Part shown: positions 29,097 through 64,000 of the stretch, piece after piece
Layout of the letters: each line of letters starts with the position of its first letter
How positions within the stretch are numbered: position 1 is the stretch's first letter
Source: Lama guanicoe
Lineage: Eukaryota
Reading direction: 5' to 3'
DNA: 64,000 nucleotides
Assembly: GCA_013239625.1 (NCBI GenBank)
Contig: MU053873.1
Coordinates: 12,524 to 76,523, forward strand
The notes under the pieces: generated by a model
Told to the model about the DNA's origin: nothing
The model's database searches: none
Seen by the model: the letters and a program-made list of their open reading frames with translations, nothing else
Translations under genes and position numbers: made by a program

Positions 29097-29325
29097 TTTG
29101 AAGTCTCCCCTTTAAGGGGAGACAGGAAATAGAACATTCTTTTTCAGAGGGAAAGGAATGTAATTTAAAAAAAAACTATAACTAGTCAAATACTGATCTC
29201 AGGCCCTGTGCGGTGGGCCCAGACCTGGCAGCAGCCCCATCTCACCCCAGGGGCTGGGGTGGCACCAGGAGGGCCGCGGCGGAGGCCAGAGGAACCCTGC
29301 CTGGCCCTCCTCAGCGGGCGGGACG

Positions 29326-30466
29326 TCACCACTGCAGAAAGTCCCGGATGACCTTCCAGAGCTTGGTGACCCACAGGTTGACGCCCAGGTCCGTCAGGTA
29401 CTGGATCTCGGGCGTGAGCATGCGCCGACAGAGCTGCGCGTGCCGCCGCCCGATGCTCTTCTTGAGGTTGTAGCCCAGGATGGACTTGGCGCCCAGCGGC
29501 TGCCAGGGCTGCATGGCCGCGTCCTGGATGGCGGTGGCGTCCACCGCGTCGCCGCCGTCGATGCAGATGCGACGCATGCGCTCATTGGCGCGCCGCAGGG
29601 CGGCTACCTCGCGGGCCATGCGCTCCCGCCCGAACGCCTCCACCTTGCGCCAGAAGCTGGCGTTGAAGTGGCGGTAGAGGCGGGCGTCCAGCTCGTTCCA
29701 GGCCGTGGCGCGGCGGTACAGCTCGCCCGAGAGGCGCGGCACGGCCGAGGCGCGGCGGGCGTTGAGCTTGAAGTAGAGCACGTCCTCCAGCTCCCAGCAC
29801 AGCAAGTCCTTGAGCAGCACCAGCGACTCGTCGAAATACTCCTGCAGGAGCACCAGGTGGAAGCGGCGCTCCACCTCCAGGATGTGCTCCTGCACCTGCG
29901 GGCTGCTGGGGTCCAGGTCGCTGTCGTAGCCCAGGTCGAAGAAGAGCAGGTTGCGGAGGTAGTGAGCGTTGTAGCCGTGGGGGTCGTAGTAGCGGTCGGG
30001 GTCCTGCAGGAACTCGGCCAGCTTGTCTTGGCCCGAGAGCTTCCACGTGAAGGGCACCACGGAGCCGAAGTAGTGGAAGGAGGACTCGAAGAGGCGGGCG
30101 GGGTCGCGGAGCACCGTGATGAAGGTGGCGTTGGGCGGCACCAGGCCCCGAACCTCGTCGTAGTGGAAGCGCATGTGGTTGCAGATGATGTTGAAGCAGG
30201 CTCCGGGCCGGTAGTCCTGCACCAGGCTGCGCGCGAAGAAGGCCGGGTAGTCGAAGTCGTTGCGGCCGTTGGGGAAGGCGAACTTGAGCCCGTGCTTCTG
30301 GCCGAAGCGGAAGAGGATGTTGAGCAGCGTGCTGCTGGCCGTCTTGTGCGTCTTCATGAACACGATGTCCCGCCGCGGCTGGCAGCCCCGAGCCGAGCCA
30401 TTGGCCGAGGTCACAGGCTCGGGCTCACTTGGAGCGGGGGAACAGGGTGCTGCGCCCTCGGAGGTC
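29326..30466 (-). CDS. GAL3ST1: GAL3ST1 large catalytic exon (CpG-rich)
   Basis: Open frame to TGA at 29326-29328; contains sulfotransferase motifs; CAG acceptor at 30467-30469. Confidence 0.96.
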
Positions 30467-31339
30467 CTGCTGGGAATAGAGTGGTGGTAGAGCCTCAGGA
30501 CTCCGCCCCCTGGGCCCTGGGGTCTAGAGAGCAGGGCTGCAGGGGATGGTGGTGGGGATCAGACTGGCCAGGGTTCAGGTTGCAAGACATAGGCAGGCAG
30601 TTTGGCCTCTCTGGCCTCACTTTCCTCATCTGTGAAATGGGGATAATAGCAGGCCCTATATGTGGTGTTGCTGAGAGAACAATAACAGGTCTCATTCACG
30701 GCCACAATGATACACATTTATCATTAAGTAGCATTAGATGGGACCACATGAAACTCTGCAGGCCAAAAATGGTCCATTATTAGCAATTTCTTCTAGTTCA
30801 ACTTAATACCTCCAACTAAGGGCCCAGGCTGTGCCAGGCCTGAGCTGAGCAGCCCTGTGGGGAGGTGGGGTGGCCTCATGGTTAGAAGCCAGGCTTGGAG
30901 GCAGACAGACCCCAGTTTGAATCCAGGCCTTGTGCCAGCTCAGTGCTCTTGGACAAGTCACCTCCACCTCCCGGCCCCACTGGAGCCTCAGAGGATGACT
31001 CTGAGCCCTGTGTACAGATAGTGTTGATTCTCATGCTTGATGATAGGTCCTCAGGTGAGGACACTGAGGCCGGGCATTTCACGGTGAGTTCTGCCCTGGC
31101 ACAGCCTCATGTAGGGCACAGCTGGGGGCTGCCCAGGAGGTGATCATCGGGGTGGGAGTCACCCTTCCCCCACCCTTCCCCCACCCCCCGACACCCAGCA
31201 GGGCCACTCACGTGGAGGCCAGGCCGGTGTGCAGCGGGGGCACGGCGTAGGAGTACAGCAGCAGCAGGAAGCTGGTGAAGAGTGCTCCCAGCACCAGCCC
31301 CTTGGCCATCGACTCCCAGCGCTTCTTCTGCAGCAGCAT
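29326..31339 (-). CDS. GAL3ST1: Galactose-3-O-sulfotransferase 1 (cerebroside sulfotransferase), 2 coding exons, 422 aa
   Basis: complement(join(29326..30466,31212..31339)) = 1269 nt. N-terminal type II TM (MLLQKKRWESMAKGLVLGALFTSFLLLLYSY), 5'-PSB motif KTHKTASST, 3'-PB motif RDPARLFESSF, C-terminus ...IRDFLQW. Confidence 0.96.
31212..31339 (-). CDS. GAL3ST1: GAL3ST1 first coding exon (TM anchor)
   Basis: ATG at 31337-31339, 9 nt of 5'UTR behind a TAG acceptor at 31349-31351; GTGAGT donor. Confidence 0.93.
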
Positions 31340-35398: not shown

Positions 35399-35540
35399 NN
35401 NNNNNNNNNNNNNNNNNNNNNNNNNNNNNNNNNNNNNNNNNNNNNNNNNNNNNNNNNNNNNNNNNNNNNNNNNNNNNNNNNNNNNNNNNNNNNNNNNNNN
35501 NNNNNNNNNNNNNNNNNNNNNNNNNNNNNNNNNNNNNNNN
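35399..35540. other. Assembly gap (142 N)
   Basis: Run of N. Confidence 1.
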
Positions 35541-36840
35541 GGAGCAGGAGGAGGAGGAGGAGGTGGAGGAGGAGGAGGATGTGGAGGAGGAGGATGTGGA
35601 GGTGGAGGAGGATGCGGAGGAAAATATGGAGGAGGAGGAGGTGGAGGAAGAGGTGGTGGAGGAGAAGGAGGATGTCGAGGAGGAGGAGGATGAGGAGGAG
35701 GATGAGGAGGAGGATGTGGAGGAGGAGGATGTGGAGGTGGAGGAGGATGTGTAGGAAAATGTGGTGGAGGAGCAGGAGGAGGTGGAGGAGGAGGTGATGG
35801 AGGAGAAGGAGGATGTCGAGGAGGAGGAGGATGAGGAGGAGGATGTGGAGGAGGAGGATGAGGATGTGGAGGAGGATGAGGATGATGTGGAGGATGAGGA
35901 GGATGTGGAGGAGGAGGTGGAGGAGGAGGATGTGGATTAGGATGTGAAGGAGGAGGATGTGGAGGAGGATGTGGAGGTGGAGGAGGATGAGGATGATGTG
36001 GAGGAGGAGGAGGTGGAGGAGGAGGAGGATGTGGAGGAGGAGGATGTGGAGGAGCATGTGGAGGTGGAGGAGGATGAGGATGATGTAGAGGAGGAGGAGG
36101 TGGTGGAGCAGGAGGAGGAGGTGGAGGAGGAGGAGGTGGTGGAGGAGGAGGAGGAGGTGGAGGAGGAGGAGGATGAGGAGGAGGAATTGGAGGAGGAGGA
36201 GGATGAGGAGGAGAAGGAGGAGAATGGGGAGGATGAGGAGGAGGAGGTGGATTAGGATGTGGAGGAGGAGGAGTAGGAAGAGGTGGAGGAGGAGGAGGAA
36301 TAGGAGGTGGAGGAGGAGGAGGAGGAGGTGGAGGAGGAGGAGGGGGAGGAGGAGGAGGAGGAGGGGGAGGTGGAGGTGGAGGAGGATGAGGAGGAGAATG
36401 TGGGGGAGGAGGAGGAGGTGGTGGAGGAGGAGGGGATGGAGGAGAAGGAGGATGTCGAGGAGGAGGAGGATGTGGAGGAGGATGTGGAGGGGGAGGAGGA
36501 GGAGGAGGAGGAGGTGGTGGAGGAGGAGGTGATGGAGGAGAAGGAGGATGTCGAGGAGGAGGAGGATGTGGAGGAGGATGTCGAGGTGGAGGAGGATGAG
36601 GAGGATGTGGAGGAGGAGGGGGAGGTGGAGGAGGAGGTGGAGAAGGAGGAGGAGGAGGATGAGGTTGAGGAGGAGGATGTGGAGTAGGAGGAGGAGGTGG
36701 AGGAGGAGGATGTGGAGGAGGAGGATGTGGAGGAGGAGGAGGTGGAGGAGGAGGAGGAAGAGGAGGAGGAGAAAGAGGAGGTGGAGGAGGAGGATGTGGA
36801 GGAGGAAGAGGAGGTGGAGGAGGAGGATGTGGAGGAGGAG
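35541..36840. repeat. (GGA)n-type polypurine array
   Basis: GAG triplets with GTG/GAT variants; reverse complement in character to 1-1303. Confidence 0.97.
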
Positions 36841-37624
36841 CAGACAGGAATTATAGCCCCATTTTATAGGCCAAGAAACCAAGGCTCAGCAATGGGGAGA
36901 TTCTTGGCCAAAGGCTCCGTGCCCAATGGCAGAGGTGGAGCCAGAACCCAGTTTAGCTCCTGGTAGTGCACCTGCCCTGCCTCTGGGGGTTGGGGAGGGT
37001 AAAGGTGGGCAGGTGAGCCCCAGCCAAGGAGGGCCAGCCTGGGGCAGGGGGCACACAGTGAGATGGAGCTAGGAGCTGGGTTCTTGGGGTAGGGGGTGGG
37101 TTGGGGGGCCCAGAGTCTGAAGAAAGCTGCCATACTAGCCCTGGACTGCCCACCACTGGACTCTTTTTGATGAGAAAGGATAAATTTCAAATTTGTGCCT
37201 TTTGGTGGGATGTGAGCCCCACTCCGGACTAATTGTGTGCAGGGCCTGAGCTGAAGCATCATCCCCAGTTCTCAGGTGAGGAGAGTGAGGCTCGGGGCAG
37301 GAGGTGACTTGTCACACCACATAAAGAGGAGGGGGTCCATCTCTGCAGTCAGCCCATGAGTTTGATGAATTTCTCAGTAGGAGACCAGAGAGGAGGCCAC
37401 AGCCACAGGCCTGGGCTGCAGGGCACTCAGGGGACTGTCGTCACCTTGCCTTCAGCCATCGGAGGGCTGCGTTGGGCCAGCAGCACCTCTGTCCCCAAGG
37501 GAGCAGAAACAGGGCCCCCAACATTCTGCTTTTGAAGGGCAGCCTTGCATGCAGGTTGAGTCCCAACAGGCCAAGCTCACCAGGGCCAGGCCGTTTGGGG
37601 TGTCCAGAGTGGCAGAAAGAAAAG

Positions 37625-38935
37625 AGACTGAACATCACTAATCATTAGGGAAATACATATCAAAAACGCAGTGAGACACCACCTCACACCCTGGAGGATG
37701 GCTACTATCAAACAACAGAAAATTTAAGTGTTGGTGAGGATGTGAATAAAGGGGAACCCTTGTGCATTGTTACTGGGAATCTAAGATGGTTGCAGCCATT
37801 GTGCAAAACAGGATGACCGTTCCTCAAAGAATTAAACAGAATTACCAAATGATCCAGAAATTCTACTTCTGGGTATATACCCAAAAGAACCGAAAACAGG
37901 AACTCGAACAGGTATCTGTACACTAATGTTCGTAACAGCTTTATTCGTAATAGCCAAAAGGTGGAAACAACCCAAGTATCCATTAACAAATGAATGGATA
38001 AACAAAATGTGGTCTATTCATACAATGGAATATTATTTAGCCTTAAAAAGGAAGGAAATTCTGACATGTGCTGCAACTTGAATGAACATTGATGACAGTA
38101 AACTAAGCAAAATAAGCCAGAAACAAAAAGATGAATGTATGATTCTCCTTACAAAAAGTACCCAGAGTAGTCAGATTCCCAGGGACAGAAAGGGGAATGG
38201 TGGTTGCCCATGTTACCCTTTCAGGTTGGGCCCCCACAGTGCCGCTGAAGCCAACAGAACGAGACTGAGTTCAGTTTAGAAGCAAAGAAAAGCTTTATAC
38301 TCTGATCAAAGGATGGAGAGGTGGGAGCTCCAGCCCTAGAGTCCTCCGAGGCTGACTCGGGGCTGCTTTATAGGGATCAGTGTCAGCCGGGAGGGGGCCG
38401 GCTCGTTCTTGCCGGTCTGCGCAGGCGTGTGGCTCACACCGCAACCTAGCGCTGTGTTCTGCGCAGCCTCCCTGCTCACCTCCTGCTGCCGCCATCTTGA
38501 ATCGAGCATTGTGCGCAGCTGCACACGGCCCGCCGAGCTGAGGTGTCCCTGCAGCCACTTTGCACCAGGAACTCTGGTCTGAGTGCAGGACTTCTGCACA
38601 CGGCTCTCTGTGAGCTAGTGAAACAAGACTAAGCACAAAGGAAAACAAACAAATAAGGTTAGACTTTATTGCCCAGATTCCGTTTTTATTTCCTGGAAGT
38701 TCTTAATTGGCTTTGCCAGGGACACCGGGGACTGAGGGGTAGGGAGAGGGGAAAATGGGGAAGTTTAATGTTTAATGAGGACAGAGGCTTAGCTGGGAAA
38801 TGAAAAAAAAAAAGTCCTGGAGTTGGATGGTGGTGCTGGTTGCACAACAATGTGAATGTACTTAGTGCCACTGAACTGTACTCTTAAAAATAGTTGAAAT
38901 GGCAAAGTTTATGTTAGGCACATTTTACCACACAC
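37625..38935 (+). mobile_element. Old L1M-type 3' fragment interrupted by a solo LTR
   Basis: L1 ORF2-end/3'UTR motifs at 37625-38210 resuming at ~38725. Confidence 0.8.
38211..38724 (-). mobile_element. ERV solo LTR
   Basis: TG...CA ends; on the - strand TATAAA, polyA-like hexamer and ...GGTAACA U5 end; splits an L1. Confidence 0.7.
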
Positions 38936-45121: not shown

Positions 45122-48100
45122 GTAAGAGCCGGAGGAAAGGGCTGAGGGCCAGGGCCGGGGTCGGGGTGGAGGGGTGGTGGTGGCTGGAACCCTGCTCCAG
45201 TCTGTTGGCTCAACACGTCCATGACATTGTCTCTCTGCTGTCACCTCACCCAGGGTCAGGTCGCATGGTGCCTGGTGGCGTCAGCCCCGTCCAGGGCAGG
45301 GGTTGAGGGAACAGCACCGCTTCCAGGCTGTAGAGTGGTGCCAGATCAAGCCCGACATCTCATCCAGGAGCCAGACCCAGAGAGTTTTATCTGACATGCC
45401 CCGTCCCCACCTTCCCTCAGGGGGAAGCCTGAGATGCGGATGGTCTGCCCTCTGACTGTCCCCCTTCACTCCCTAGGACCCTGAAAGATGGCCTGTCTGT
45501 AAGAGCTGAGAGACGGGGCGGGGTGTGTTGTCATCCTCACGGTCAACAGGGCAGAGAACGCATAATCACTAACCACGTTTCTGTGAAAAATGAGATAGAA
45601 AAAAGACAGAAGCCTCGGTGGGCTAACACATGGAAAGAACTAAGAATACATCCATACTCTGGTCCACCCCACCCCCAATTTATCCTTTCTTCCATCCATC
45701 CTCCCTCCCCTACCCACCCATCTATCTAGCCCTCCTTTGGCCATTTATCCACCAGTCTCCCTTTTCTTCTACTAACTTCAACCACCTCTCCTTTTGTCCA
45801 TCCACCACTCATTGGTTTCTCCTTTGTTTTGCATGCATCCATCCTTTCTTCTTTCTCTTCACTACCCATGCATCTGCCCACCCGTCCTTCCATCACTGTG
45901 GGCCAGACTGCACTGGAAGAGAAGAAGGGAAGATGAAAACAATCACCGAGTCTGGAGCCAAGGCTCAGCATGAAAACCTCTTCAACCGACATCTCTCTTC
46001 CCAGTTCCGAGAAAATGTCCAGGACGTGTTGCCCTCCCTCCCCAACCCGGATGACTATTTCCTTCTGCGCTGGCTCCGAGGTGAGGGCAGAGATGGGGGA
46101 AGTCAGGGAGAAGGGGCAGTGAGAGGGGCCTGGTCCCAACCAACTGTTCCATGAGGACCCGTGGTTCTCAGGAGCCGACCACACCGTCTTCATTCACATG
46201 TTCAGGTCCAGGAGAGGGGAGGGGGCAGGAAGGAGAGCCCCATGCCCTCCATAGCTCCCCACTACCCAAGACCAGGACAAGATGACTGCAAGGCAGCCTC
46301 TTTCCCACCCCATGCCTTCCTTCCATCTTCCCACAGCTCGGAATTTCGACCTGCAGAAATCAGAGGCCATGCTCCGCAAGGTGAGTCCCATCCCCCTTGG
46401 AAATTTGGTGAGGGACTTTGTTGGGGGGTGGCCCATGCCTTGAGCCTCCTCAGAAGTGATGGGTGCCATCTGGGGTCTTACCACTCATTTCCCTTTCAGT
46501 ACATGGAGTTCCGGAAGACCATGGACATTGACCACATCCTTGATTGGCAGCCCCCCGAGGTGAGCCAACACCACCACCATGCACACCCCCCTGAAGTTTT
46601 ACAGACATACCACCGAAGCAGCTTCTGGACCACTGGGAGCCATGAGTGAAGGCCAGCAAGACTGAGAGGCCTGTGGAACCCCCAACCCCCACAGGCCTGC
46701 AGGCACCTCTCCGGCGATAATTAAGACTATTTCCTGGGGGCTTATGAGGTCCAGGCCTGAGTTAAGACTTTACCTGCATGAGCTTATTTAATCCTCACAA
46801 CCCCATGAAGCAGGTACCATTGCCCCCATTGTACACATGAGGACACTGAGGCCCAGCAGGGGTTAAGCAGCCTCCCTGAAGTCCCGCAGCCTCCCCAGAG
46901 TCCCACAGCCCCGAGGTGGAGCTAGGATTTGAGCTCAAGCCTGTCTGTCTTCACACCCAGGCTCTTCACCACCACAGCTAGATCATGGCAGTGAGCCGTC
47001 ATCCTAGGGCCTTGCTCAAAGCATTGTATCTAGGTGGGGAAGAAACTTAGCCCACCAAGGAGCTGGGGAAAACAGTCCCACCACTGGTGTCTCAGTAAAG
47101 CAACAGTCCTAGTTTCATTTGTGGAGCACAAGCTCTGGGCCAGGCACAGTGCTTTCCAGTGTGATTCTGGGGACTTCCCTCAACAGAGGAGGTGGAATGG
47201 GGCTCAGAGAGGTGGCATCACTTGCTCAAGGATGCACAGCAGGGAAGCAGTAGCGTCTGTTTTTGAACCAGGTCTGCTGACCTTCAGAATCTATGTTTTT
47301 CGTCACTAAGCCTAACTCCTCTCTATGGAAAGGGACATGGGAGGCACTGGGGCAGAACTAAGGAGCCCAGAGGCCTCAAGCAGCCCTGGCTGAGGCCTGG
47401 CTTTGCCATGTGCCTGCTGTGAGCAAGGTCCCCCACTGCAAGCCCCTGAGTTTCCTCACTTGGACGGCAGTGCCACCCTCCAGGGGAGGGGCAGTGCTAG
47501 TATCATGGTGCATGTAGGCTTGGGCTACCTGCCTGGGAGTTTCGGAGGTGCATAATGCCAAGTGTTGTGTGTCCTTCCATGCCCAGGTGGTCCAGAAGTA
47601 CATGCCTGGGGGCCTGTGTGGCTATGACCGTGACGGCTGCCCCGTGTGGTATGACATCATCGGGCCACTTGACCCCAAGGGCCTGCTGTTCTCAGCCACC
47701 AAGCAGGATCTGCTCAAGACCAAGATGCGAGACTGTGAGCGCATCCTGCACGAATGTGACCTGCAGACACAGCGGGTGAGTCTGCCAGGGGACACGGTCC
47801 CAGGGACACACCTGTGCTCTCTGGTGTCACGGTCACGAGGCTCTGGGGTCAAACACCAGCTCTGCTGCTTCCCAGCTGTGCCACCTTGGGAAGTCACCTC
47901 ACTTCTCTGAGCCTGTTTCCTCACCTACAAAGCAGGGACAGTAATAAATAATGGTTGCAAACATTAAGCAAGATAATACAAATATACGGCCAGCATACAG
48001 GGCCGAATGCATATTTCTCAGCAATGCTAGACACTGTTCTTCCCTCCGAGTCTTGGCCTCTGCTGTTCCTTCTGTCTAGATAACCTGGACCCCTGCACAC

Positions 48101-51100
48101 ACCTACCTCCCCCACCTCCCTTGGCTCTCTCCTATCTATCTCTCAGGTTTCAAACTGTCACCTTCTCTGAGGCCCCTGTCTGGGTTGAGATGTGTTTCCA
48201 CAGCTCCTGTGCTGGCCCATCAGAGCACTCACCTCGGGACCGCGGTGACCTGGTTACTTATCAGTCTCCCCAACCAGACTGTAAACTCCTGAAAGACAAG
48301 AGCCGTGCATGATTGAGCCTTATATGTTATACTTTCAGTGTCTGGTTCAAAATAGATGCTTAATCATATCATTTGGACAAATGGATGGATGCATGAATTG
48401 GAGTATGAATTTGAAAATGGATGGTGAATTGATGAATGGATGAGTCAATTAACAGATGGATGGACAGATGGACAGATGGCTGGGTGGATAATGAATAGGT
48501 AATGGATGGTGGGCGGATGGTGGGTGGATGGTGGATGGATGGTGAGTGGATGGTGGGTGGATGGCTGGTAAATGCATTCCCTGTTTTGTCCACTCATTCC
48601 TGAGGACAGAGTAAGAGGCTGGGAGAAGCCCTGAGGGGTCACGTGCTGTGGTCATGACCTCCCAAGTTCTGAGCCTGCACCCTGATCTTTGCTCTCATCC
48701 TTGCAGCTGGGGAGGAAGATTGAGACCATAGTGATGATATTTGACTGTGAAGGCCTGGGACTGAAGCACTTCTGGAAACCCTTGGTGGAAGTGTACCAGG
48801 AGGTGAGGAGAAGGCCCCTGGGCGCCCTGCTTGCTTTAACGACCAGTTTGGTCTGGTGTCACCTTGCTGTTCACTCAGAGCCAGGATTTGGTAAAATGTG
48901 GTGGTCTCCCTGGGCCCCATCACTGGAACTCAGGACCCAGAGATATGTTTCTTGGAAGAGGCCTCAGGGGCAACACTGTACTAAGACCCCAGGGGCCAGC
49001 TTCTGACAAAGCCTCCCCAGCCCTGTCATCCCTAGCTCTGTGACTCCGGCAAGTCACTTTATCCCTCCATGCTTTGTCGTCCTCACCCACAAAATGGGGC
49101 TACTGACAGTCTGAGTTTCAAAAGGATGTAGGGATACTTAAGTGAGTTGATATGTAAAGTGTATACACAGTGCTTGGCAAATTGTGAACGTTTAATAAAC
49201 AGTGGTCATTACTATTACTGTACTCCCATTGCTGTACTATTTACTCTAAAAATGATTATGATGATGTAATTATTATTCGGGTGTGGTTGCAATAGTCCGT
49301 GGTGGGCTGTGGGAACATAGGGGCCAGTGGAGGTGATGGAAGAAAGGGAAACCTTTCACAGCCCTCTGGATGGGGGTAGCAGAAGAAGGGGTGTGGGCTC
49401 TGATGGGGTCTTCCTTGATTCCACAGTTCTTTGGCCTCCTTGAAGAGAATTATCCAGAGACCCTGAAGACCATGCTAATTGTGAAAGGTGTGTGGCAAAT
49501 GACTTCACTCCCCTGTGCCTTTGTTTCCTCATCTATACCCTGGGAGCAGTAATAGTGCCTTCTTCCCTGAGTAGCAGTGAAGCAGGTTGGTTACTTGGCT
49601 GCATGCACATCACTCAGAGTGCCTGGAACAGAGTAAGTGGTCCATAAATTGTAACTTCCATGGTTGGTTTTACTGCAAGAAGAGTTAGCTTCAACCCCAG
49701 CTCTTCCAGGAATCCCTCCTCACTTCTCCCACTGTGTTGATTTCTCCCTCCCTAAACTGCCTCTGGCACTGGCAGCTGGTTCAGCCCAGTCTGACCTTTC
49801 CTATCTACTGCCTTCTGGGGCCTCCAGTTGTCTTGTGTGTGTGTTCATCCTGATTTCCTTGGGTTGCCTGCTCCTTGAAGACAAGACCTCTGTTTCTCCA
49901 CTTCTGTTGTATCCCTCACAGGCCTGGGACCAGGTGGAAACTCAATAGGCTTTTGGGTGGCTGTTCTTTGCATGGGTGGGTGGATGGAAAGGTGGCTGTA
50001 TGTTAGATGATTGGTTGACTGGTTGATTTATTGCTTACTTGGTTGCCTAGTTGACTGGCCAGTTGGCTGGCTGGCTAGATGACTGACTGGTGGTTCGTTG
50101 GATGGTTGTTAACTTGGTAGACTGATTGAGTAACTAGTTAGCATTTTGGTTGGCTATGAGGGTGAGTGGGCAGTTGGCAGACTGGTTAGTTGGTTGGCTG
50201 GTTTGTTGTTTGGTTGGATCTTGGATGGTTGACTACTGGTTGTTTGAATGGTTGGCTGGTTGGTTATTTGAATGGTTGACTAGTTGGAAAAGGCAGTTGT
50301 TTGGGTAGTTAGGTGGTTGTTCAATTGGCTGATTGGTTTGATGATTGGCAGACATGTTGATTGGTTCTTTGACTATTCGGTAGGTTGACTGATTGGTTGG
50401 TAGGCTGATTGATGGCTGGTTAGAAGGTGAATTGATTAGCTATTTGTTGGTTGGTTTGTTAGCTGTTTGATATATTGGTTGATTGGATGGTTGGTTAGTT
50501 GGCTGCTTGTTGTTTTGACTGACCAGTTGGTTGGATGATTTGTCAGGTGCAGGGCATTGGAACTTGCCAAAGTAATTCATGATTCCTCCATATTGTTGAC
50601 TATGACTGTTATGGTGAAAGTGGCCCAATGGAATTATTTTTACCATTATACTTGCTTATATCTCTCCAGCCACCAAACTGTTCCCTGTGGGATACAACCT
50701 CATGAAGCCCTTCCTGAGTGAGGACACTCGCAGGAAAATTGTAGTGTTGGGAAGTAAGTAGTTTCAGCTCCATTCTCTGAGTTCTGTGCATGAACTTTGG
50801 AGTAAGTTTGGTCCATCACACCAGCCAGAGGTACAGGCATCACCTAGAGTCAGAGGCGCCTCATTCTCAAAGATGAAGGGTGTCTTACTCTATAGAGTCT
50901 ATTCAGTTACCTCCTCCTTACTCCCTGCCATACCTCTTCAGTGACTAAGGCCTCCATGTCTTCTTCCTAGTTTCAGTTTGGTTTCTAGTCAACCCCTGGG
51001 CTATGGGCCTCAGTTTCCTTTTAATACTCATCACTTCAGTGCTTCTAAAGGCAATTTGGGCTGAGGAGGACAAGGAAGAAGAGCAGGAAGAGATGTGATT

Positions 51101-54899: not shown

Positions 54900-57016
54900 A
54901 GCACTTTCCTAGAAGCAAAGGAAGTCATGTCTGGCTTGAGCTGCTGCCTGGTAATAATGAAAACAAACAACACAGCTGTCATTCAGTTAGTTCTATGTAC
55001 CATACAGAGTGCCAAACGCTTTATAAGTTTAGCTCACTCACGCCTGCCCTGAGGCTACATAGCATGGCCACTTATGCATAAGGAAACTAAGGCTCAGAGA
55101 GGTGAAGTCACTCACCCAACATCACACAGCTCTTAAGTGGCAAACTCACTCCCACTCCGTATCCCTAGTTGGTGGGAAGCAGGCCTCCAGCTCCTGATCT
55201 CTAGGGCTCCAGTCTCATCCAGGGGTCAGAGGCTTCCCTCTAGCTCTGAGTGTCCAGGGTGTGGCATGGGGAGGGAAAGAAACCCCACTTTGTAGCCTTG
55301 GCCAACGGGTCCCCCATTCCACAGTGGTCAGCAGGCAGTATAGGGGCAGGAAGACCAAGGCCAGCAGGCTCCCCACTGTGTGTGAAGGGAAGTTGTGTCC
55401 CAGCTCCCACGGCCCAGAAATGTGAGGGAGGAGACAGGGAAAGAAAGGCCTCAGCTGTCCTTGGGAGGCAAAGATGGTAACTGCAGGCTGCTTCCCTTAA
55501 GAGAGAGGGATTGAATTTGGCAGCTGAGGCTGAAAGTCTGAGCCACTTACCCAGGGCAACCTGTGGGCAGAGAATGAGCCAAGTCCCTGCTGTGCTAAGT
55601 GGGCGCCAGATGCCCCCCGCCACCTTCCCCAGGAACCCAGTGCTACAGCAGCCTCTCCAGAAAATCCACCTTCACATCACACACTTAAGGTCAGGTTTGT
55701 CCCCAGGCACATGGTACCAACACATACAAGTGCCAGAGCGAGTTGAGGCAAGACCAGAGCTCTAGGGAAATAGAAGGCATTATTGCATATATATAAAAGG
55801 TGATTTAGTTGTTTTCTGAAGGGGCCCCTGTCTCCCTGCTTTCCTCGGTGGTGGACTGGGACACGCTATCTGTCTCCTCCTCAGAAGATAGTCTCTCCAT
55901 TGCCCCGACTACCAGCTGCCTCTCTTCAGTGTCTGGCCTGGCCAGGACCCGCCCTCAGTGTGTTCCCTAGCCAGCCTAGAGGGCAGCTCAGTGGGAAGGT
56001 CTTGAACACATTCCTCAGGGTCAGCAGAATCAGGACCAGCAGCAGAGTGATGCAGCCGACGGCCAGAACCACTGCCAGCCAGTCCTTCAGCGTCTTACAG
56101 GAGGCTGGGAAGGACTGGGCCAGAGCACCTCAGGACTGCCCAGAGGTGTGGGGCGGGCCATGCAGGGCACTTAGAACTGCCCCTGAGCCTTCAATGACTC
56201 ATCAAAAGCCAGAAGCCTGCAGGGAAGCTGGGGACAGGCCAGGCCAGAGGGGATGGGCCCGAGAATGAGTGTCCATGAACCTGGATGGTAGTGGGGGGAC
56301 CAGTCCTCTTAGGGTCTCGGCTGCCTCCCAGCCCTGTACCTACCTTTGAACCACGACATCGGTGGCTTCTTGACCTTCAGAGGCCCTGCAACCACAATAT
56401 AGATATTCCCTTCTCCTTGGAATTCTGTGGTGGGGGGGCCCATATCTTTGTCCCCCTGCCTCTAGCCACTGGTGGAGGCTCAGAGCTGGTTTACTCCTGA
56501 GTAGGTGTGTGTTCACCTGCTAAATGGGGGCTGGGGGCAGTGAGATGTCACCTATCGGGGTTTACATGAAAATAACTGAAGAACACAAACACCCATTCAC
56601 ACAGTACTTGTTTGTTTCTAATACCTCCCTCCATTCTGCGGATTATTAAACCGTCATAAATGTGGAAGAGGACTCTCACCAACAGAGCATTCTGGGGAGT
56701 ATTACAAAAACTGGACCATTATATTAATGTACGGATGTAACAAAGTTGCCCCAGTCTTCCATCATCCAGAGGGACAGAGGTCACAGTGCCCTGGTTCCTC
56801 CATCTGTAATCACATCTATCAAAACCTCTCTGCAGTGAGTGGGCCTTCCCAGCCTGCTGTGCGATCCTTGGGCCAGACTCCATCCCAGACTTGCTGCTGC
56901 ACATGGAAGTGTGAGACCCCGAGTGTCGCCTCACGCTGGTCAGAGCTCAGCCAGATCCAAGGCTGTGGGTTTCACATCCCAGCTCTGGATCCCTTCCTGC
57001 TGCCACTCTCAGGGGT

Positions 57017-57180
57017 GAGGGTTGCCAAATAAAATACAGGACACTCGATTAATTCTCTAAAACTTTAGTATAAATGTATCTCTTGTGATATTTGGGACAT
57101 GGTTATACTAAAAAATTCCCTGTTCCTCTGACATTCAAGTTTAACTCCTGTATTTTTATTTGCTAAATCTGGCAAACCTA
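57017..57180. mobile_element. MER53-like palindromic hAT MITE
   Basis: Termini AGGGTTGCCA...TGGCAAACCTA, internal palindrome, degenerate 8-bp TSD TCAGGGGT/TCAGAGGA. Confidence 0.8.
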
Positions 57181-60100
57181 TCAGAGGATCCAGCACCCCT
57201 TTCCTGGACTGACCTCCCAGCTCTGCCCAAAATAGCCCTGAGAGGGGAATCAGTAACTGAAGGAGAATCCCCAGGCTTCCAGCTGGGCCTGGGGCACGGC
57301 CCTCACCTCATCCTCTTCCATGTCATTGTTGAGCATGAAGGCCTCCATGCTGAACTGCAATGTCTCATTATTCTGCCAGGACCAAGGGCTGGACCTGGGG
57401 CCTATTGAGAGGCGCCCGGGGGACAGACAAGAGGCCTGAGGGACCATCACCTCAGAGACTGGTTGAAACAAGTTTCCTGAGAAGCCACAGGAAGACTCAC
57501 ACTGCGGGAACTTCTTTCTCCTTAAAGCCACGTTAAAGAATGTTTACTCCATTACTAGGGCCTGGGGACAGATGTGTTTAGCCTGAGCAAAGGGCAGAAG
57601 TTACAAAGTCAAGCACGAGTGACAAGACTCTCAGGCCCGTATAGCCACTCAGTCTGCATCCTGACTGGGAAGGACAGCACCTCTTTGCCGAGCTACTTAC
57701 AGCCCAGTTGGGCAGGGTCAGACCTTGGCAAGTTTAGACCAAGCACCAAAAAACAGTGGTTACCATGACCAAGTGCAAAAGACAGACCTCTACACATGAT
57801 TACACCAGTGGCCCAGCTAAGCAAGACCCCAGGATAGAGATAAGCTCTCTGTCCCCCTCTGTCTACTTTCCCACCCCTTGCAGCCCCATAGACGCCTGGT
57901 TGAAGACGAGGGTGTATATCCTCTGGGAGCAGTTGAGGTACTGGCTCTGGGAGCCCACACACTTGTCCACATAGAGTTTCATGGCCCAGTTTAACACCGG
58001 CTGGATGTGGGCTCTAGGGTCAGCCATGAGCCTTCCACACAGGGAGGTGGCGAGGCACCCGAGGGAAGTGAGGGAAGAGAGTTACTCCTGGTACGTAGTC
58101 CTGGCTACCACCTAACAAGCATCTAGTGCATGCCTGGGAGATCACAGCCATTATTCTACTCTTTCCTGAGTGGTCCTAGAAGTGTTATGCCCATTTTACA
58201 GATGGGGTGATGGAGGCTCAGAGAGGTCCTTGAACTTCAGTTCTCTTACCTGGCCTCATCTACCAAATGGGTGCACACCTGTCCCACCAGGGGTGGAAGA
58301 CTGAGGCCAGGAACAGGATGGTGTACATGGCCCACATTCTGACCTCCCTGGGAAGTCCTCAGGGGTTCACTCTCCATCCCCTCCATACACACCAGGCCAA
58401 GACTCACCAGGCGGTATCGGGAGGGTCACCTGCAGGGGCTGTGTGTTGAGGGCTGAGGAGTCCTTGGAGGGGGTGTTGGGCAGGGTCCACGATGGGCTAG
58501 CTGCAGGAGAGCTGTTTGCCTGCCCCCCGAGGAGCAGCCTGGGCTGGGGGGCTGCCAAGGGAGAGGCACTACAGGTCAAGGGGGTCTGGTGGGTCTCCAC
58601 AGTCAGACTGGAGGGCAAGGCCTGGGCAAGTTCCTCTAGAGGTGGGTAATGGGAGTGGGAGGACTGGATAAGCTGCTCAGATAAGCCTGACCAGCTCTCA
58701 GCATCCTCCCAGCTGCCACTGGGGGCTATTCCACATATCCCATGTGGACCACACAACTGCCCCTATTTTACAGATGTGGAAACTGAGGTTGGGAAGTCCT
58801 GCTACCCTCTGCCTAAGGTTACATGCAGCTATTAGCTGCAGAACTTAGATTCAAACTCCCAAGCAAGGGCTCTTCCAGAAATATTTAAAGATTGGAGTTG
58901 TTAGATGGCAAGATTCAGACGATACCAAATGGTATTAAAATAAAAGCTAAGTTTACCTTTACCCTAGCCCTACAAGTAACTGTGTGTCAGTGTGAGCAGC
59001 TGGCCTGTGTGTAGGCAGACTCATCCCTGCATGGTCTCCAGCTGATTCTTTTTACTGTTTGGGCTCCTGACCACCTTGCCATGCTGCCTCTAAGAGGGAT
59101 TATCTTGAACCAGAGGGTCTAGGGCAGACCAAATACCCAAAAGAAGCTGGAGGGTTTTTTAAAAAGAAGAATTTAAGGCAGTTGTTTAGTGTTTGCTGAG
59201 CATCTACGTACAGCATGCCAGGCTCTGCCTTAGAGGCCAAGTGTGCAGGATGGGAGTGAACCCCTACCCTTGAGTTTGGCCTGGCCAGGGAGTGCAAACC
59301 TTAAAAAGCAGGACTGCCCTGGACTCAGGAGGTTCCTGCTCAGCCTGGGACAAGGCTGAAAGGATCCCCAGGTGCAGGGTGAAGGTCAGGGAGGCAGAGG
59401 AGGAGGTGACCCAGGGCCCTGGTGTCCTAGGCTCTCGGTGGGGTAGGCAGGAAGGGACCCCACGGGGCTTTGGGAGGTGGGGCTGAGTGTTGGAGGACAC
59501 CCGACAGAGTGACTCACTGGCCATCAGAAAGGAAGTCCCCTCCTCCCAGTATCCCTAGGATGCTGATTCCAGCTCCTGTGGTGGCCCAGGCCAGGTGTGC
59601 TGGGATGAATTATCTGGAGGGGGCTCACCAGATGCACTGCTAGCAGGAGGAGGCTCAGCTCAGGGGTGGGGAGGACAAGAGAAAGGCCCCACCACCATCA
59701 CCCCCACTCCCAAGGGAGACCCATTGCCCGGCCCTTACCAAGAAGCAAGATCAGAGCAACAACCTGCAGAAGCCCCCTGGGGGCAGCCATAATGAGAAGA
59801 AACATTGTCCACCCCTCACAAGCCTCCTTAAATTGGCCCAGAGGAGGCTGAGGAAGGAATGAGCCTCACCTGGAGCCCACAGGTGAGCCTACGGCACGGC
59901 TGAGCTGGGCCAGGCCAAGCATTTCCATGTTCCCCTACCTCTGCCCCTCCACCTGCCTGCAGTGCCTTCTGATTTTAGAAAAGGCTCTGAAGCCCTCCTC
60001 ACTCACACGGGATCTAATAAGGATAGTAAGAGAGCTGACTTAACTTTCTCATCTGTAGGATGATAATGGCGGCACCTATTACAGAAGGTATTATGAAGGT

Positions 60101-61577
60101 TCCATAGCAGTGCTTAGTGTAGGGCCTGGCGCATAGAACATCCATGTGGGTGTCATTTGATGACTCTTGTCCAAGGGGAAGGAGAAATATGAAGATGATT
60201 CTGTCTGGGAGAAGCTGGGGAGGATTCAAGGAACAGGTACCACTAAAGATGGACCTTGAAGGCAGAGAACAGAGGGAAGTGGGAGTGGGGAGGGCGTTCC
60301 TGGCAGCTGGCATGGCCTGAGCAAAGGCACAGAGGCTGGATGTGCTGGGAGAGGGGTCAGGGTGGCATGGGTGTGTCACAGTGAGGGATGAGACTGCGAA
60401 GACCTGGACTCTCTGAGTGCCAGGCTGAGGTGTTAGGACTGGACCCTGAGAGCTGTCAGGAGTCATGGAAGGTATCAGAACAGAGGAGGGACTCGGGGAG
60501 AGTCAGCCACCAGCAGGATCAGATCAGAAGAATGTTCCTTTATGCACTGGGCCTTTAAAGAGTGCCCAAGGTTTTAGTTTGTAAAAATAAAACCATATGA
60601 TCACTCTCAGAGGCACATCTTTGGATCACCATCCTATTATTGTCTCTGAATAAATTCTTAGGATTGGGATCCCTGAACCATGTAATTAGCCTATTTTCTC
60701 TCTAGGTTAGTCATCTAATGGCACAATTACCATTTATTTGCCCTTGAAATGGATGTCTCTTGCTACAATCATAATAGTGATTAAATAACTCTGTGAACCC
60801 AATGCTGGCTGACCTCTTTGCAAACCATTTCTTCTGTAATCCTTGCAGCAGCTTCAGAGGGTTATTACGGAGAACTGTACAATGTAGAAACCACGGCTCG
60901 GAGAGGTTAGATAACTTGCCCAAGGTCACCCAGCACGTGAGTCAGCTCTGACTCTGCAGAGAGCCACTGGCTGGGAGGCAGTACTGGGCTGGGAGGGACG
61001 GGGGGAGGAGGGGGATTGGGATGACTCCCACTTCACAAAACAGGGACCCAACCACATGTGGTTGTAAAGAGTAAATGAGCCACATTCCAGGAAGTGCTTA
61101 GCAGAGGACCTGGCGAACTAGGAGCCGTTCAATCACCCTGGAGGCTTTTGAATCAGCCAAGGTGGGTGCATAGGGAGGTGCTGCCTCCTTGTGGTGAGCC
61201 TGAGCATTGCTTGAAGCCGGGGACCCAACTCCCAGCATGCCCCAGGACAAAGGCCACCAGGTCTGGGGGTGGGAAAAGACATCTCTCCACCCGCCCCCAC
61301 CCCACCCCTGACTACCACCCAATCCCAGCAGGGATCTGCCTCATCCTCTCAGGCCCCAGGAAAGCAATTTCCTATTACACCCAGCATCTGCCACCTTCAG
61401 TCTGATTGACCTCTGCATCTGTTTCCCTGACCATCAAATGGGATGTTAGCCCAGTTGCTAAGAACTGTCCCCTGTCCCCTGCCCAGGAAAGATGCAGGCT
61501 GAAGAGAGTGCTTCCTGCCTCTACAGGGCTAGGATGTTTGGGGGAGGCATTCCAGCTCCATGGATGGCCCCCCAGAG

Positions 61578-61770
61578 TAGAGTTGCAGATAAAACACAGG
61601 ATGCCCAGTTAAATTTGAATTTCAGATAAACAATGAATTTTTCAGTGTACATATGCTCCATGTAATATTAGGGACATGGTTATACTAAAGTATTATTTGT
61701 TGTTTAAATCAAACCAAAAAAAAAATCTAATTGTGCATCCTATTACTTCATTTGGTATGTCCAACCCTAG
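61578..61770. mobile_element. MER53-like palindromic hAT MITE
   Basis: CAGGATGCCCAGTTAAATTTGAATTTCAGATAAACAA...CAACCCTA. Confidence 0.8.
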
Positions 61771-64000
61771 CTCGGAGGGTCCAGTATAGAAGCTGGACTG
61801 GGCTGCCTGGGAGGGGCAACTACCCAATCTCTGCTAGGGGCTTTGGCCTCTCACTTCTGGTCTCACCAGCTGGTGCGGGGACTGTCTGTCATTACTCCTA
61901 CTTTACCGAGAGGCCATTGAAACTCCCGCTGGCTCAAAGCCACACAGCTGATGTGCGCAGGAAGCTGGGAGAGAGTTGGGGCTGCTGCCTCCAGGAGTGT
62001 CCCAGGCCCTGGCCATAGGGGCTCACAGAGGGCGAGGCCAAGGTCTCTACAGGCCATTAGCACAGCCTCCTCTGGGCAGGAGGCTCCCAAGCCGGCCCTA
62101 GGGGGTCAGAGGCTACCTTGAGGGGGTGAACTAAGGGAGGAGTGGATTGTAGTCAGAGCGGGGTGAGTCGGCCTGCAGGAGGGGCTGAGGGAGGCTAGAA
62201 GGGAGTGTCCCAGTTGGAAGGAGCAGTACATGCGAAAGCCCAGTCAAGAGAAACACGGGATTCAAGGAACAAAAGACAGGATAGCTGGAATGAAGATTTG
62301 GGGGAGCGGTGTGGGGGACCATCCAGGTCACGCAGGGCTCTGAGAGCCACCGCAGGGAGTCTGGAGTCTGTTCTGAGCATTTTAAGAAGGGTTTGGCCAG
62401 ATAGAGCAGCTTGGAGCGGGGCAAGCTGGAGGCTGCCGCCCTCATCCAGACCTGGAGGGGACAGATAGGAGATGTGGAGGCAGACAGAGGACTGGGAAGA
62501 GAAGCTTTAGGAGCAAGGGGGAGCAGCCAGGGAAGAGAGGGGCCTGAGCCCAAGCACCTGGCACTGGGGTAGCAGCCAGAGGTGGGAGGAAACCTGTCAT
62601 CACTGTCAGCGAGCTGGGGAGGCTGCCTGGTATAGGAGGCAGAGGCTGGTCAGGGCCCGGAGAGGCAGGGACAGGGATGGGTCTGGGTGACAGCTGCCAG
62701 GGACACCCTGGGACCTCCTACCTGCCAGGGCTCTTTGATGGGGTGGCTGGAGGGCTGGACAAGTTAACCTCACAACAGTCACACATACAGCTCAGGAGGC
62801 ATCGTCCAGAAGTTCCCACCTAGCGGGAGGTCGAGGATGGAGCAGAGAAGGTTCTGCTTAAGTCAGTCCACCCGAGACCAGGGTGGGGGCAGGAGACCAT
62901 GGGCCAGCCTGCATTTAATAATTTAAAAACATGGAGGCTGTAAAAGGTCAGTAACTGGCCCATGATGTCACAGCCAACAATCTGGGATTCGAACCTGGGT
63001 CTGCGTCAGAGTCAAAAGTCTCTATTCCCAACATACCTCATGCTACCCACTCCAGGAACTACTGCAGGAGGGTTGAGATCTTTGGCAAGTTAATCTGAAC
63101 CACAGGCAATTAAGCAAGGTCATGTACATCAGATGCAGGCTATAGGGTGGGGTGTGAGTACACCTTCACTGAACGTGCATCACCTGTTTCTGTCCCCATG
63201 GAAGGAACAGGCCTTCTTGGCAGCATCAGATAGGACCTTTGGGTCCCAGACCAGCAGCTGGCAGTGGACATAAACCTATGGTGACAGAGATGCAGGCCGA
63301 GGGATCTTTGGAAGGTGAGGAGTGAGGGGACCCAGACCCTGAGGGCACCTGCTTCCACTCACAGGAGTTAAGGCTGAAGTCCTCGGAGATCTCTCGGGAC
63401 AGGAAGCCTAGACACTCCAGCTCCGCTGCGCCCCTCAGAATCTCCCAGGCACCCCAAACTCCTGGCAGGCAGCCTGTCCCTACGGGTCTCACCAGTGGGG
63501 TGGAGCTACAAGCTTTGAGTGGTGCAAGGAAAACCACATAGCGAGGCGTGACAGGGACCAAGGAGGGAGTGCAGGTGCCAAGATGCAGGTGGTGGACATC
63601 AGGCTGGGATTCCTGCGTCACTGCCAGGAGGACATCTGTCTGATTACATTCCTGCAGGAGGCTGTCCTCTGGCAGTCTGACCCAGGCTGGCACGGCCAGA
63701 GAATGACCTCAGTGAGGACATGGCCAGCAGAGCCTGTCCAGAAACATCCTCCTGACCTGACCCCCGCCTTCAACCACTGCATCTCCAGGATGGAGCAGGG
63801 AAGGGGTATGTGTAGTGGGGGGAGCCTCTCTCCCCAAAGCCAGGCTGTCACAGACCTCATCCCCACCAGCCTGGCCTGAGGATGTCTATAAGCACCTTGT
63901 GTGAGCACCTACCATGTGCCAGACATCTGCAAACTTGCCCCCTCGTAATTCTTTACAAGGCAGGGCCACCAGTGGGACAGTCAAGGCTAGAGGGGGCCCA

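Follow-up and report, generated by a model that had tools for sequence, protein, structure and literature searches.

The window analysed here is a 64,000-nucleotide stretch of the Lama guanicoe genome (contig positions 12524-76523; the assembly totals 2.05 Gb and has 55,231 contigs). Toward its end lies a set of exon-like pieces resembling the zona pellucida (ZP) protein ZP3, with the 3′ end of a SEC14-like gene on the forward strand and that of MTFP1 on the reverse strand converging on it from either side. On the strength of sequence comparison we consider it probable that the reverse strand from ~55.8 to 63.4 kb holds non-functional relics of one or two ZP3-derived genes. A first-pass annotation of this DNA had instead read the region, placed downstream of SEC14L3, as a fossil receptor gene with several immunoglobulin (Ig) domains, laid out in four exon-like blocks (blocks 1 to 4).

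Exon-like pieces on the reverse strand

We built the map of the locus from tblastn searches over 54-74 kb (20 kb, both strands), frameshift-aware alignments with shuffled-query controls, and splice landmarks. Six exon-like pieces, all on the reverse strand, match type I membrane ZP-C proteins of ZP3 type; exon by exon they are significantly similar, with matching splice phases, to proteins predicted in opossum, tenrec and sloth. Every tblastn match at E < 0.01 fell within the reverse-strand exons listed here, and the next best match in the same 20 kb had an E value of 0.096. The six pieces, together with a possible exon 3A remnant, a candidate signal exon and the displaced tail, follow in their order along the reverse strand, with the suffix A for the upstream group and B for the downstream group.

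63364-63405, reverse strand: possible exon 3A remnant, FLSREISEDFSLNS then GTGAGT, at the end of block 1 and ~90 nt upstream of exon 4A
63275-63184, reverse strand: exon 4A, VYVHCQLLVWDPKVLSDAAKKACSFHGDRNR, with two conserved ZP-C cysteines, an AG acceptor and a GT donor, phase 0 to 2
62819-62722, reverse strand: exon 5A, RWELLDDAS then TGA, with CMCDCCEV shifted to a different frame and TCPALQPPHQ returning to the original one
59805-59739, reverse strand: candidate signal-peptide exon, read from the sequence as ATG, MFLLIMAAPRGLLQVVALILLL, then G/GTAAGG, phase 1
58100-57896, reverse strand: exon 2B, the start of ZP-C, ...CVEGSWLTLE, a frameshift, then AHIQPVLNWAMKLYVDKCVGSQSQYLNCSQRIYTLVFNQ, with a GC donor
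57435-57307, reverse strand: exon 3B, ASCLSPGRLSIGPRSSPWSWQNNETLQFSMEAFMLNNDMEEDE, with an AG acceptor and a GTGAGG donor, phase 0 to 0, open
56424-56344, reverse strand: exon 6B, EFQGEGNIYIVVAGPLKVKKPPMSWFK, the hydrophobic strand before the membrane anchor, 81 nt, open, phase 1 to 1
56104-55926, reverse strand: exon 7B, ASCKTLKDW, the transmembrane (TM) helix LAVVLAVGCITLLLVLILLTL and a short tail to TGA
55954-55805, reverse strand: conserved cytoplasmic tail rich in serine and acidic residues, MERLSSEEETDSVSQSTTEES, no longer in the frame of the TM exon

In the upstream group, exon 4A is identical to the sloth protein (P0004) at 27/31 residues (tblastn E 4.6e-16) and is the best place for that protein in the whole genome (E 4.6e-11; next best 0.64); with the opossum protein (P0012) it shares 11/31 residues (E 0.004). 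Exon 5A aligns with residues 159-190 of the opossum protein at a frameshift-aware score of 52, compared with 24.7 ± 4.6 for shuffled queries (z-score, z, of 5.9), and the tenrec segment SSLCDCCDFGCPPP aligns with its SCMCDCCEVN. The pieces of the downstream group are of the tenrec and opossum type. Exon 2B was matched by tenrec at E 7e-15 and by opossum at E 4.5e-9 (tblastn), and it is the sole place in the genome for P0012 at E ≤ 1 (E 1.2e-4). Against 100 shuffles, exon 3B reached z 20.4 with tenrec and 10.9 with opossum, with tblastn E values of 4e-7 and 0.001. Exon 6B was matched at E 5.5e-6 by tenrec (18/32 identical) and at E 5.7e-4 by opossum, and exon 7B at E 1.8e-6 by tenrec (59% identity; z 14.7 against 60 shuffles, tail included). 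Moreover, the splice from exon 6B to exon 7B is in frame, and the junction SWFK/ASCKTLKDW reproduces tenrec SWFRASCRTLKELL. The tail at 55805-55954 aligns with tenrec SSGEENEASPSTVEES and with a further comparator, P0003.

Two other pieces are assigned with more reserve. The candidate exon at 59739-59805 may encode the signal peptide: in phase it is compatible with the exon 2B acceptor at 58100, and its alignment to the opossum N-terminus was not significant (z 0.8). The last 14 residues of the block 1 open reading frame (ORF), at 63364-63405, could tentatively be taken as what is left of exon 3A, being identical to sloth FLPRKVPERLELS at 6/13 residues (z 0.7 to 1.6).

ZP3-type cysteine motifs can be read across the pieces, as VDKC in exon 2B, SCL in 3B, and VYVHC and KKAC in 4A, with CMCDCC of exon 5A out of frame and the pieces themselves out of order. 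Exons 2B, 3B and 7B have a GC content at third codon positions (GC3) of 0.76-0.79, compared with 0.58 ± 0.08 in 93 local ORFs, and show the largest excesses of that set, with exon 2B at the top.

The relatives were reached by two routes. ORF 57253-57543 matched a Camelus ferus protein (P0002; hypothetical protein CB1_000760009, 189 aa, an ab initio model; E 4.2e-9) that is ~90% identical to the window, and P0002 in turn matched sloth P0004 (E 1.3e-10), which NCBI names "zona pellucida sperm-binding protein 3-like" and for which a PF00100 match is precomputed. When ORF 57866-58081 was compared exhaustively with 1.84 billion representatives by phmmer, 8 proteins came back at E ≤ 1e-3. Two of them are whole-looking predictions, one from an afrotherian, the tenrec (LOC123521618, XP_045145470.1, 273 aa, E 1.5e-10), and one from a marsupial, the opossum (LOC103100361, XP_056676806.1, 302 aa, E 5e-4; an older 362-aa model too); the remaining six were a 3,402-aa protein (P0010) and five ORFs on short contigs. 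The tenrec, sloth and opossum proteins score 39.1, 28.2 and 26.9 bits for the Pfam ZP-C family PF00100, all above its cut-off of 24.6. The opossum relative also matches the chicken ZP3 structure 3NK3 over residues 37-178 (E 3e-10), with the VDxC, GCL, Y-I-x-C, K-x-C and CxCC positions aligned, and its nearest cluster in the Atlas is ZP-C-only (295 aa, 93% PF00100, 107 chordate members, score 0.96). When the opossum and sloth proteins were searched against the 2.05 Gb genome, this locus was the only one found at significant E, and the exon peptides returned self-matches only, with no paralogs elsewhere in the draft genome. The assignment to ZP-C follows from similarity to proteins that stand above the Pfam cut-off, not from a direct profile match.

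From these relatives, the genes would have encoded a signal peptide, one ZP-C module without ZP-N, a hydrophobic strand, a TM helix and an acidic tail. Pfam finds only ZP-C in the relatives, and no match to an earlier part of the proteins was found in 54-74 kb; nor did we read a basic cleavage site (R-x-K/R-R) ahead of GPLKV/GPLVV in the printed sequences. Judging by general ZP biology, the product of a whole gene would be a membrane-tethered ZP-C module and not a filament subunit, and it would presumably be unable to polymerise with itself, because it has neither ZP-N nor a furin site.

Two of the other matching sequences, P0006 and P0011, both on contigs of other species, have the exon 2 VDxC cysteine replaced, reading GDEW and VDKY for VDKC. 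On these changes, the ZP-C gene may be decaying independently in several lineages.

State of the locus and number of genes

Exon 2B carries a frame change at ~58007-58012 on which P0007, P0012 and P0008 (tenrec and opossum included) agree; at 205 nt its length is incompatible with phase 1 to 0, and the next intron starts with GC, not GT. A count of two frame changes in this exon was cut to one; the opossum protein follows the frame from the acceptor at 58100. Exon 5A contains a TGA and two internal frame changes around its CMCDCC motif. Exon 7B ends early, and the acidic tail continues in another frame after a change at ~55946-55952 seen with two comparators (tenrec and P0003). Furthermore, exons 4 and 5 are absent between 3B and 6B and lie ~5.5 kb upstream of the rest, the order on the reverse strand being 4-5-(signal peptide)-2-3-6-7 as against 2-3-4-5-6-7. 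Skipping exons 4-5 does not rescue the frame, since the phase is 0 at the end of 3B and 1 at the start of 6B. As in a unitary pseudogene, the frame is disrupted and no intact copy is found elsewhere in the draft genome, although one might lie in an assembly gap. The locus would thus appear to make no protein, and would be neutral DNA downstream of MTFP1 and past the 3′ end of the SEC14-like gene.

Within this reading, we lean toward two old tandem paralogs as the source of the pieces. Paralog A, of sloth type, would be recognisable only in exons (3)-4-5, and paralog B, of opossum/tenrec type, in exons 2, 3, 6 and 7, its exons 4 and 5 having eroded beside a repeat insertion. The contrast in identities fits paralogs better than a single gene: exon 4 agrees with sloth at 27/31 residues (87%), with tenrec at 5/26 (19%) and with opossum at 11/31 (35%), whereas exon 3 agrees with tenrec at 18/38 residues over the full alignment and with sloth at 7/18, and a hand count of its core motif gave 13/21 for tenrec and 10/21 for opossum. 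In addition, the 880 bp between exons 3B and 6B are roomy enough for two eroded exons, and a weak collinear trace lies there, HFHVQQQVWDGVWPKDRT against sloth YVHCQLLVWDPKVPPDAT (8/18 identical).

The alternative, which we regard as rather unlikely, is that of one ancestral ZP-C gene killed by a rearrangement in which exons 4-5 moved ~5.5 kb upstream of the signal exon, or the signal exon and exons 2-3 moved down. It accounts for the exactly complementary exon groups, 4-5 upstream and 2, 3, 6 and 7 downstream, and for phases that chain from 3B (ending in 0) through 4A (0 to 2), 5A (2 to 1) and 6B (1 to 1) to 7B. Near the A pieces there is no exon 2-type or exon 6/7-type match, the 64-74 kb past the window included; the traces of exons 4B and 5B were not significant, and region A showed no significant similarity to region B at the DNA level. 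The order recurs in the camel model P0002 and so is not explained by a fault of this assembly alone. Set against the identities in exons 3 and 4, these points leave the pair of paralogs as the reading that we prefer.

Several observations weigh against a ZP-derived pseudogene in either form. The single-base frame changes could be errors of the draft assembly. The candidate signal exon and exons 3B, 6B and 7B are open with good splice sites, and could still yield some transcript or a short product. Exon 4A, at 87% identity to sloth, is by a rough estimate more similar than neutral decay would leave it after the split from sloth, which hints at long or continuing constraint. No direct PF00100 match was obtained from the pieces of the window itself, whether from ORFs (0), read-through translations (0) or exon 4A alone (0); a genome-wide PF00100 scan found 30 places, none of them at this locus with its short, broken pieces. 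The proteins of opossum, tenrec and sloth were predicted automatically and are at most putative orthologs by position. The signal exon (z 0.8), exon 3A (0.7-1.6) and the exon 4B/5B traces (≤ 1.7) are all non-significant, and GC3 is not a very specific measure, the window-wide 95th percentile of the periodicity excess being 0.42.

Taken at their strongest, some of these points would make the locus a gene that still works, yielding either a membrane protein, short or alternatively spliced, from the signal exon with 3B, 6B and 7B, or a truncated, secreted ZP-C piece from 4A-5A. The open frames and canonical splice sites of the signal exon, 3B, 6B, 7B and 4A speak for it, together with the in-frame junction of 6B and 7B, the high conservation of exon 4A with sloth, and the 189-aa ab initio model that Camelus ferus has from some of these pieces. 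We judge it improbable, as joining 3B to 6B breaks the frame, exon 2B carries both a frameshift and a GC donor, the ZP-C cysteines either sit out of frame or belong to exons whose arrangement prevents an ordered join, and the conserved tail is out of frame.

Relation to known ZP proteins

Judged by the opossum relative, the proteins to which the relic is compared share with ZP3/ZPC (chicken 3NK3/3NK4; medaka/human-type 8BQU) the ZP-C cysteine positions VDxC, GCL, Y-I/V-x-C, K-x-C and CxCC, and a hydrophobic strand followed by a C-terminal membrane anchor after ZP-C. They differ from it in that Pfam finds no ZP-N here or in the opossum and tenrec proteins, in that no basic furin-type site was read before the hydrophobic strand in the printed sequences, and in that the locus here is broken. 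TGFBR3L offers a second comparison, with its ~290-300 aa, signal peptide, single ZP-C and TM helix; its cluster ranks third for the opossum relative in the Atlas with a feature score of 0.94, a likeness by features and not by direct sequence comparison, whereas among solved structures ZP3 gave the best match in sequence. TGFBR3L itself serves as a co-receptor for inhibin.

The camel model P0002 is built from the end of the block 1 ORF, exon 4A (~63.28 kb) and exons 3B and 7B. It differs from the relatives in placing exon 4 ahead of exon 3 and in skipping exons 2, 5 and 6, and its Pfam ZP-C score of 15.5 bits is below the cut-off of 24.6. It is an ab initio chimera of pseudogene pieces and not evidence for a working gene.

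That mammals have lost genes of the ZP family is well documented, and this locus would add another case of that known kind. Feng et al. (2018, PMC6262864) describe ZP3.2 as a pseudogene in panda, cat and opossum and note comparable segments in the horse, and further losses are reviewed by Moros-Nicolas et al. (2021, PMC8005149); ZP genes lost in mammals include ZPAX, ZP1, ZP4, ZP3-1a/1b and ZP3.2. The present locus is like them as a ZP3-clade relic in a placental mammal, interrupted by stop codons and frame changes, and unlike them in that those papers deal with full ZP modules, whereas the whole relatives found here are ZP-C only. Among the literature texts retrieved, represented in part by titles and the beginnings of abstracts, none described this locus or linked a ZP gene with MTFP1 or SEC14L3.

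It is quite possible, if short of probable, that the therian ancestor carried an unnamed, ZP3-derived, ZP-C-only membrane gene, perhaps as a tandem pair, between MTFP1 and the SEC14-like cluster. Such a gene would be whole in opossum and tenrec, would belong to a cluster of ~100 chordate proteins, would have disappeared from many placentals, whether early or in separate events, and would survive here as a wreck. ZP genes are a textbook example of gain and loss linked to fertilisation, and as an unlisted ZP3-derived locus it would be an extra data point in their history. If the ZP-C-only relatives of opossum and tenrec are real and expressed, they would make up a small unnamed branch of the ZP family and, if so, a second type of ZP-C-only protein beside TGFBR3L; a whole protein of this kind might act as a membrane receptor, or as a cap or regulator of ZP filaments.

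The immunoglobulin reading, neighbouring genes and other features

The first-pass annotation had inferred a multi-Ig receptor, with V-set, I-set and C2 domains, from peptide motifs spotted in the raw sequence. The quoted peptides are all present on the reverse strand where it placed them. We compared 147 stop-to-stop ORFs of at least 40 aa from 55500-64000 (8.5 kb) with Pfam, using the forward strand as the control, and found Ig-family matches in 0/69 reverse-strand and 0/78 forward-strand ORFs at E ≤ 10; this profile hidden Markov model comparison, the check that the annotation itself had named, refutes the Ig reading. Ig families were likewise absent from 12 read-through translations (X at stops), an insensitive scan that also missed a 44-residue piece of the MTFP1 exon used as a control. 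The supposed C2/I-set hallmarks do not hold together, with WQQEG, WLSSDQR and HSGSHTS lying in three frames and RDRL and GDS in a frame other than that of the block 1 ORF, and the motif D-x-G-x-Y-x-C occurs neither in the 160-aa ORF of block 1 nor in 58635-58408.

A fossil receptor of the HEPACAM/CEACAM/VSIG10L kind, with a V-set and C2/I-set domains, is thus barely credible. Some of the pieces do show the phase-1 boundaries and type I layout on which it was based, and ZP-N and ZP-C are described in the ZP3 structural literature as immunoglobulin-like folds, which we count in its favour. On the other side stand the absence of Ig families from the 147 ORFs, the scatter of the cited hallmarks over several frames, and relatives that, wherever significant, are all ZP-C proteins predicted to have one ZP-C module and not several Ig domains. 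What remains of the proposal is a spliced (not processed) type I membrane gene that decayed in place; its Ig family and multi-domain anatomy fall away. The search for Ig hallmarks in raw sequence had led to the wrong family and yet located a true fossil gene. Its position between a SEC14-like gene and MTFP1 also stands, the paralog label SEC14L3 being unproven, as Pfam shows only CRAL_TRIO there.

Only block 4 proved to be an exon as proposed. It is the TM exon at 56104-55926, open and with a phase-1 acceptor (tenrec tblastn E 1.8e-6; z 14.7); a Pfam hint of DUF5527 on it (E 0.32) was rejected, the true member of that family in this genome being on another contig. In block 1, VRLPEDSLLQECNQTDVLLAV and EDFSLNS lie in a single 160-aa ORF (63229-63708) with GTGAGT at its end, and RDRL and GDS lie in a different frame. 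Compared with the relatives, this ORF gave z -0.1 to 1.2 (100 shuffles each), no similarity above the controls, and a hand alignment of it to the first half of ZP-C was dropped for not rising above shuffles.

Block 2 is indeed open at 58635-58408, contains LTC and QPLQVTL, and has AG and GTGAGT flanks in phase 1-1. As an exon, it is found in no relative and was matched by no annotated protein; its only match is an ORF on a contig of another species, collinear through both flanking "introns" with equal similarity and with a frame change inside. We read it as a probable chance ORF within intron 1. A gene model joining the signal exon, 58635-58408 and the TM exon in frame was dropped, its middle piece having no relatives and no conservation above the flanks. 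Block 3 did not behave as an exon either (z -0.5 to 1.7 against shuffles), and its WQQEG, WLSSDQR and HSGSHTS lie in three frames within ~100 nt. The strongest exons, namely 63275-63184, 62819-62722, 58100-57896, 57435-57307 and 56424-56344, fall within the range that had been annotated and were not among the pieces quoted.

Chance ORFs in GC-rich intergenic DNA, a reading in keeping with 147 ORFs of at least 40 aa in 8.5 kb and with the chance-like behaviour of blocks 1, 2 and 3, can hardly account for six matches to a single family, all collinear, on the same strand and consistent in phase, with E values as low as 7e-15 and 4.6e-16, or for relatives that match only this locus of the genome at significant E.

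Block 3 also contains an interspersed, palindromic repeat resembling a miniature inverted-repeat transposable element (MITE).

57058-57146: MITE-like repeat, within block 3, between exons 3B and 6B

This repeat is 72% identical, in both orientations, to 61607-61695. The copy at 61607-61695 had 951 first-look candidates in the genome; scoring 40/951 of them gave 56 matches, with many places matching on both strands. The MITE-like repeat region is also given as 61590-61790 of the window.

The neighbouring genes and gene parts are as follows.

5597-5710, reverse strand: CRAL_TRIO exon (Pfam E 9.5e-8)
29329-30558, reverse strand: presumed GAL3ST1, a single 410-aa ORF for a complete-looking galactose-3-O-sulfotransferase (Pfam PF06990, E 1.9e-173)
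47518-47907 and 50618-50758, forward strand: CRAL_TRIO exons (Pfam) of the SEC14-like gene, whose 3′ end points toward the relic
65826-65828 in window-equivalent numbering, reverse strand: MTFP1 stop codon
contig 79384-79599, just outside the window, reverse strand: MTP18 domain of MTFP1
contig 92919-93011, beyond the window, reverse strand: CRAL_TRIO exon

By their CRAL_TRIO exons, SEC14-like genes lie on both sides of GAL3ST1 and MTFP1. GAL3ST1 is ~17 kb from the SEC14-like gene, on the opposite strand, and its ORF is overlapped by a 528-aa ORF on the forward strand (29197-30780) that has no Pfam match and is probably an antisense artefact of a GC-rich exon. Gene order and orientation at the human locus seem different from those of this window.

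Finally, two stretches of the window have extreme base skews, 1-2000 (GC skew -0.57, AT skew -0.42) and 36000-38000 (GC skew +0.52, AT skew +0.28), which suggests long simple or strand-biased repeats, and runs of N occupy 811-892 and 35399-35540.

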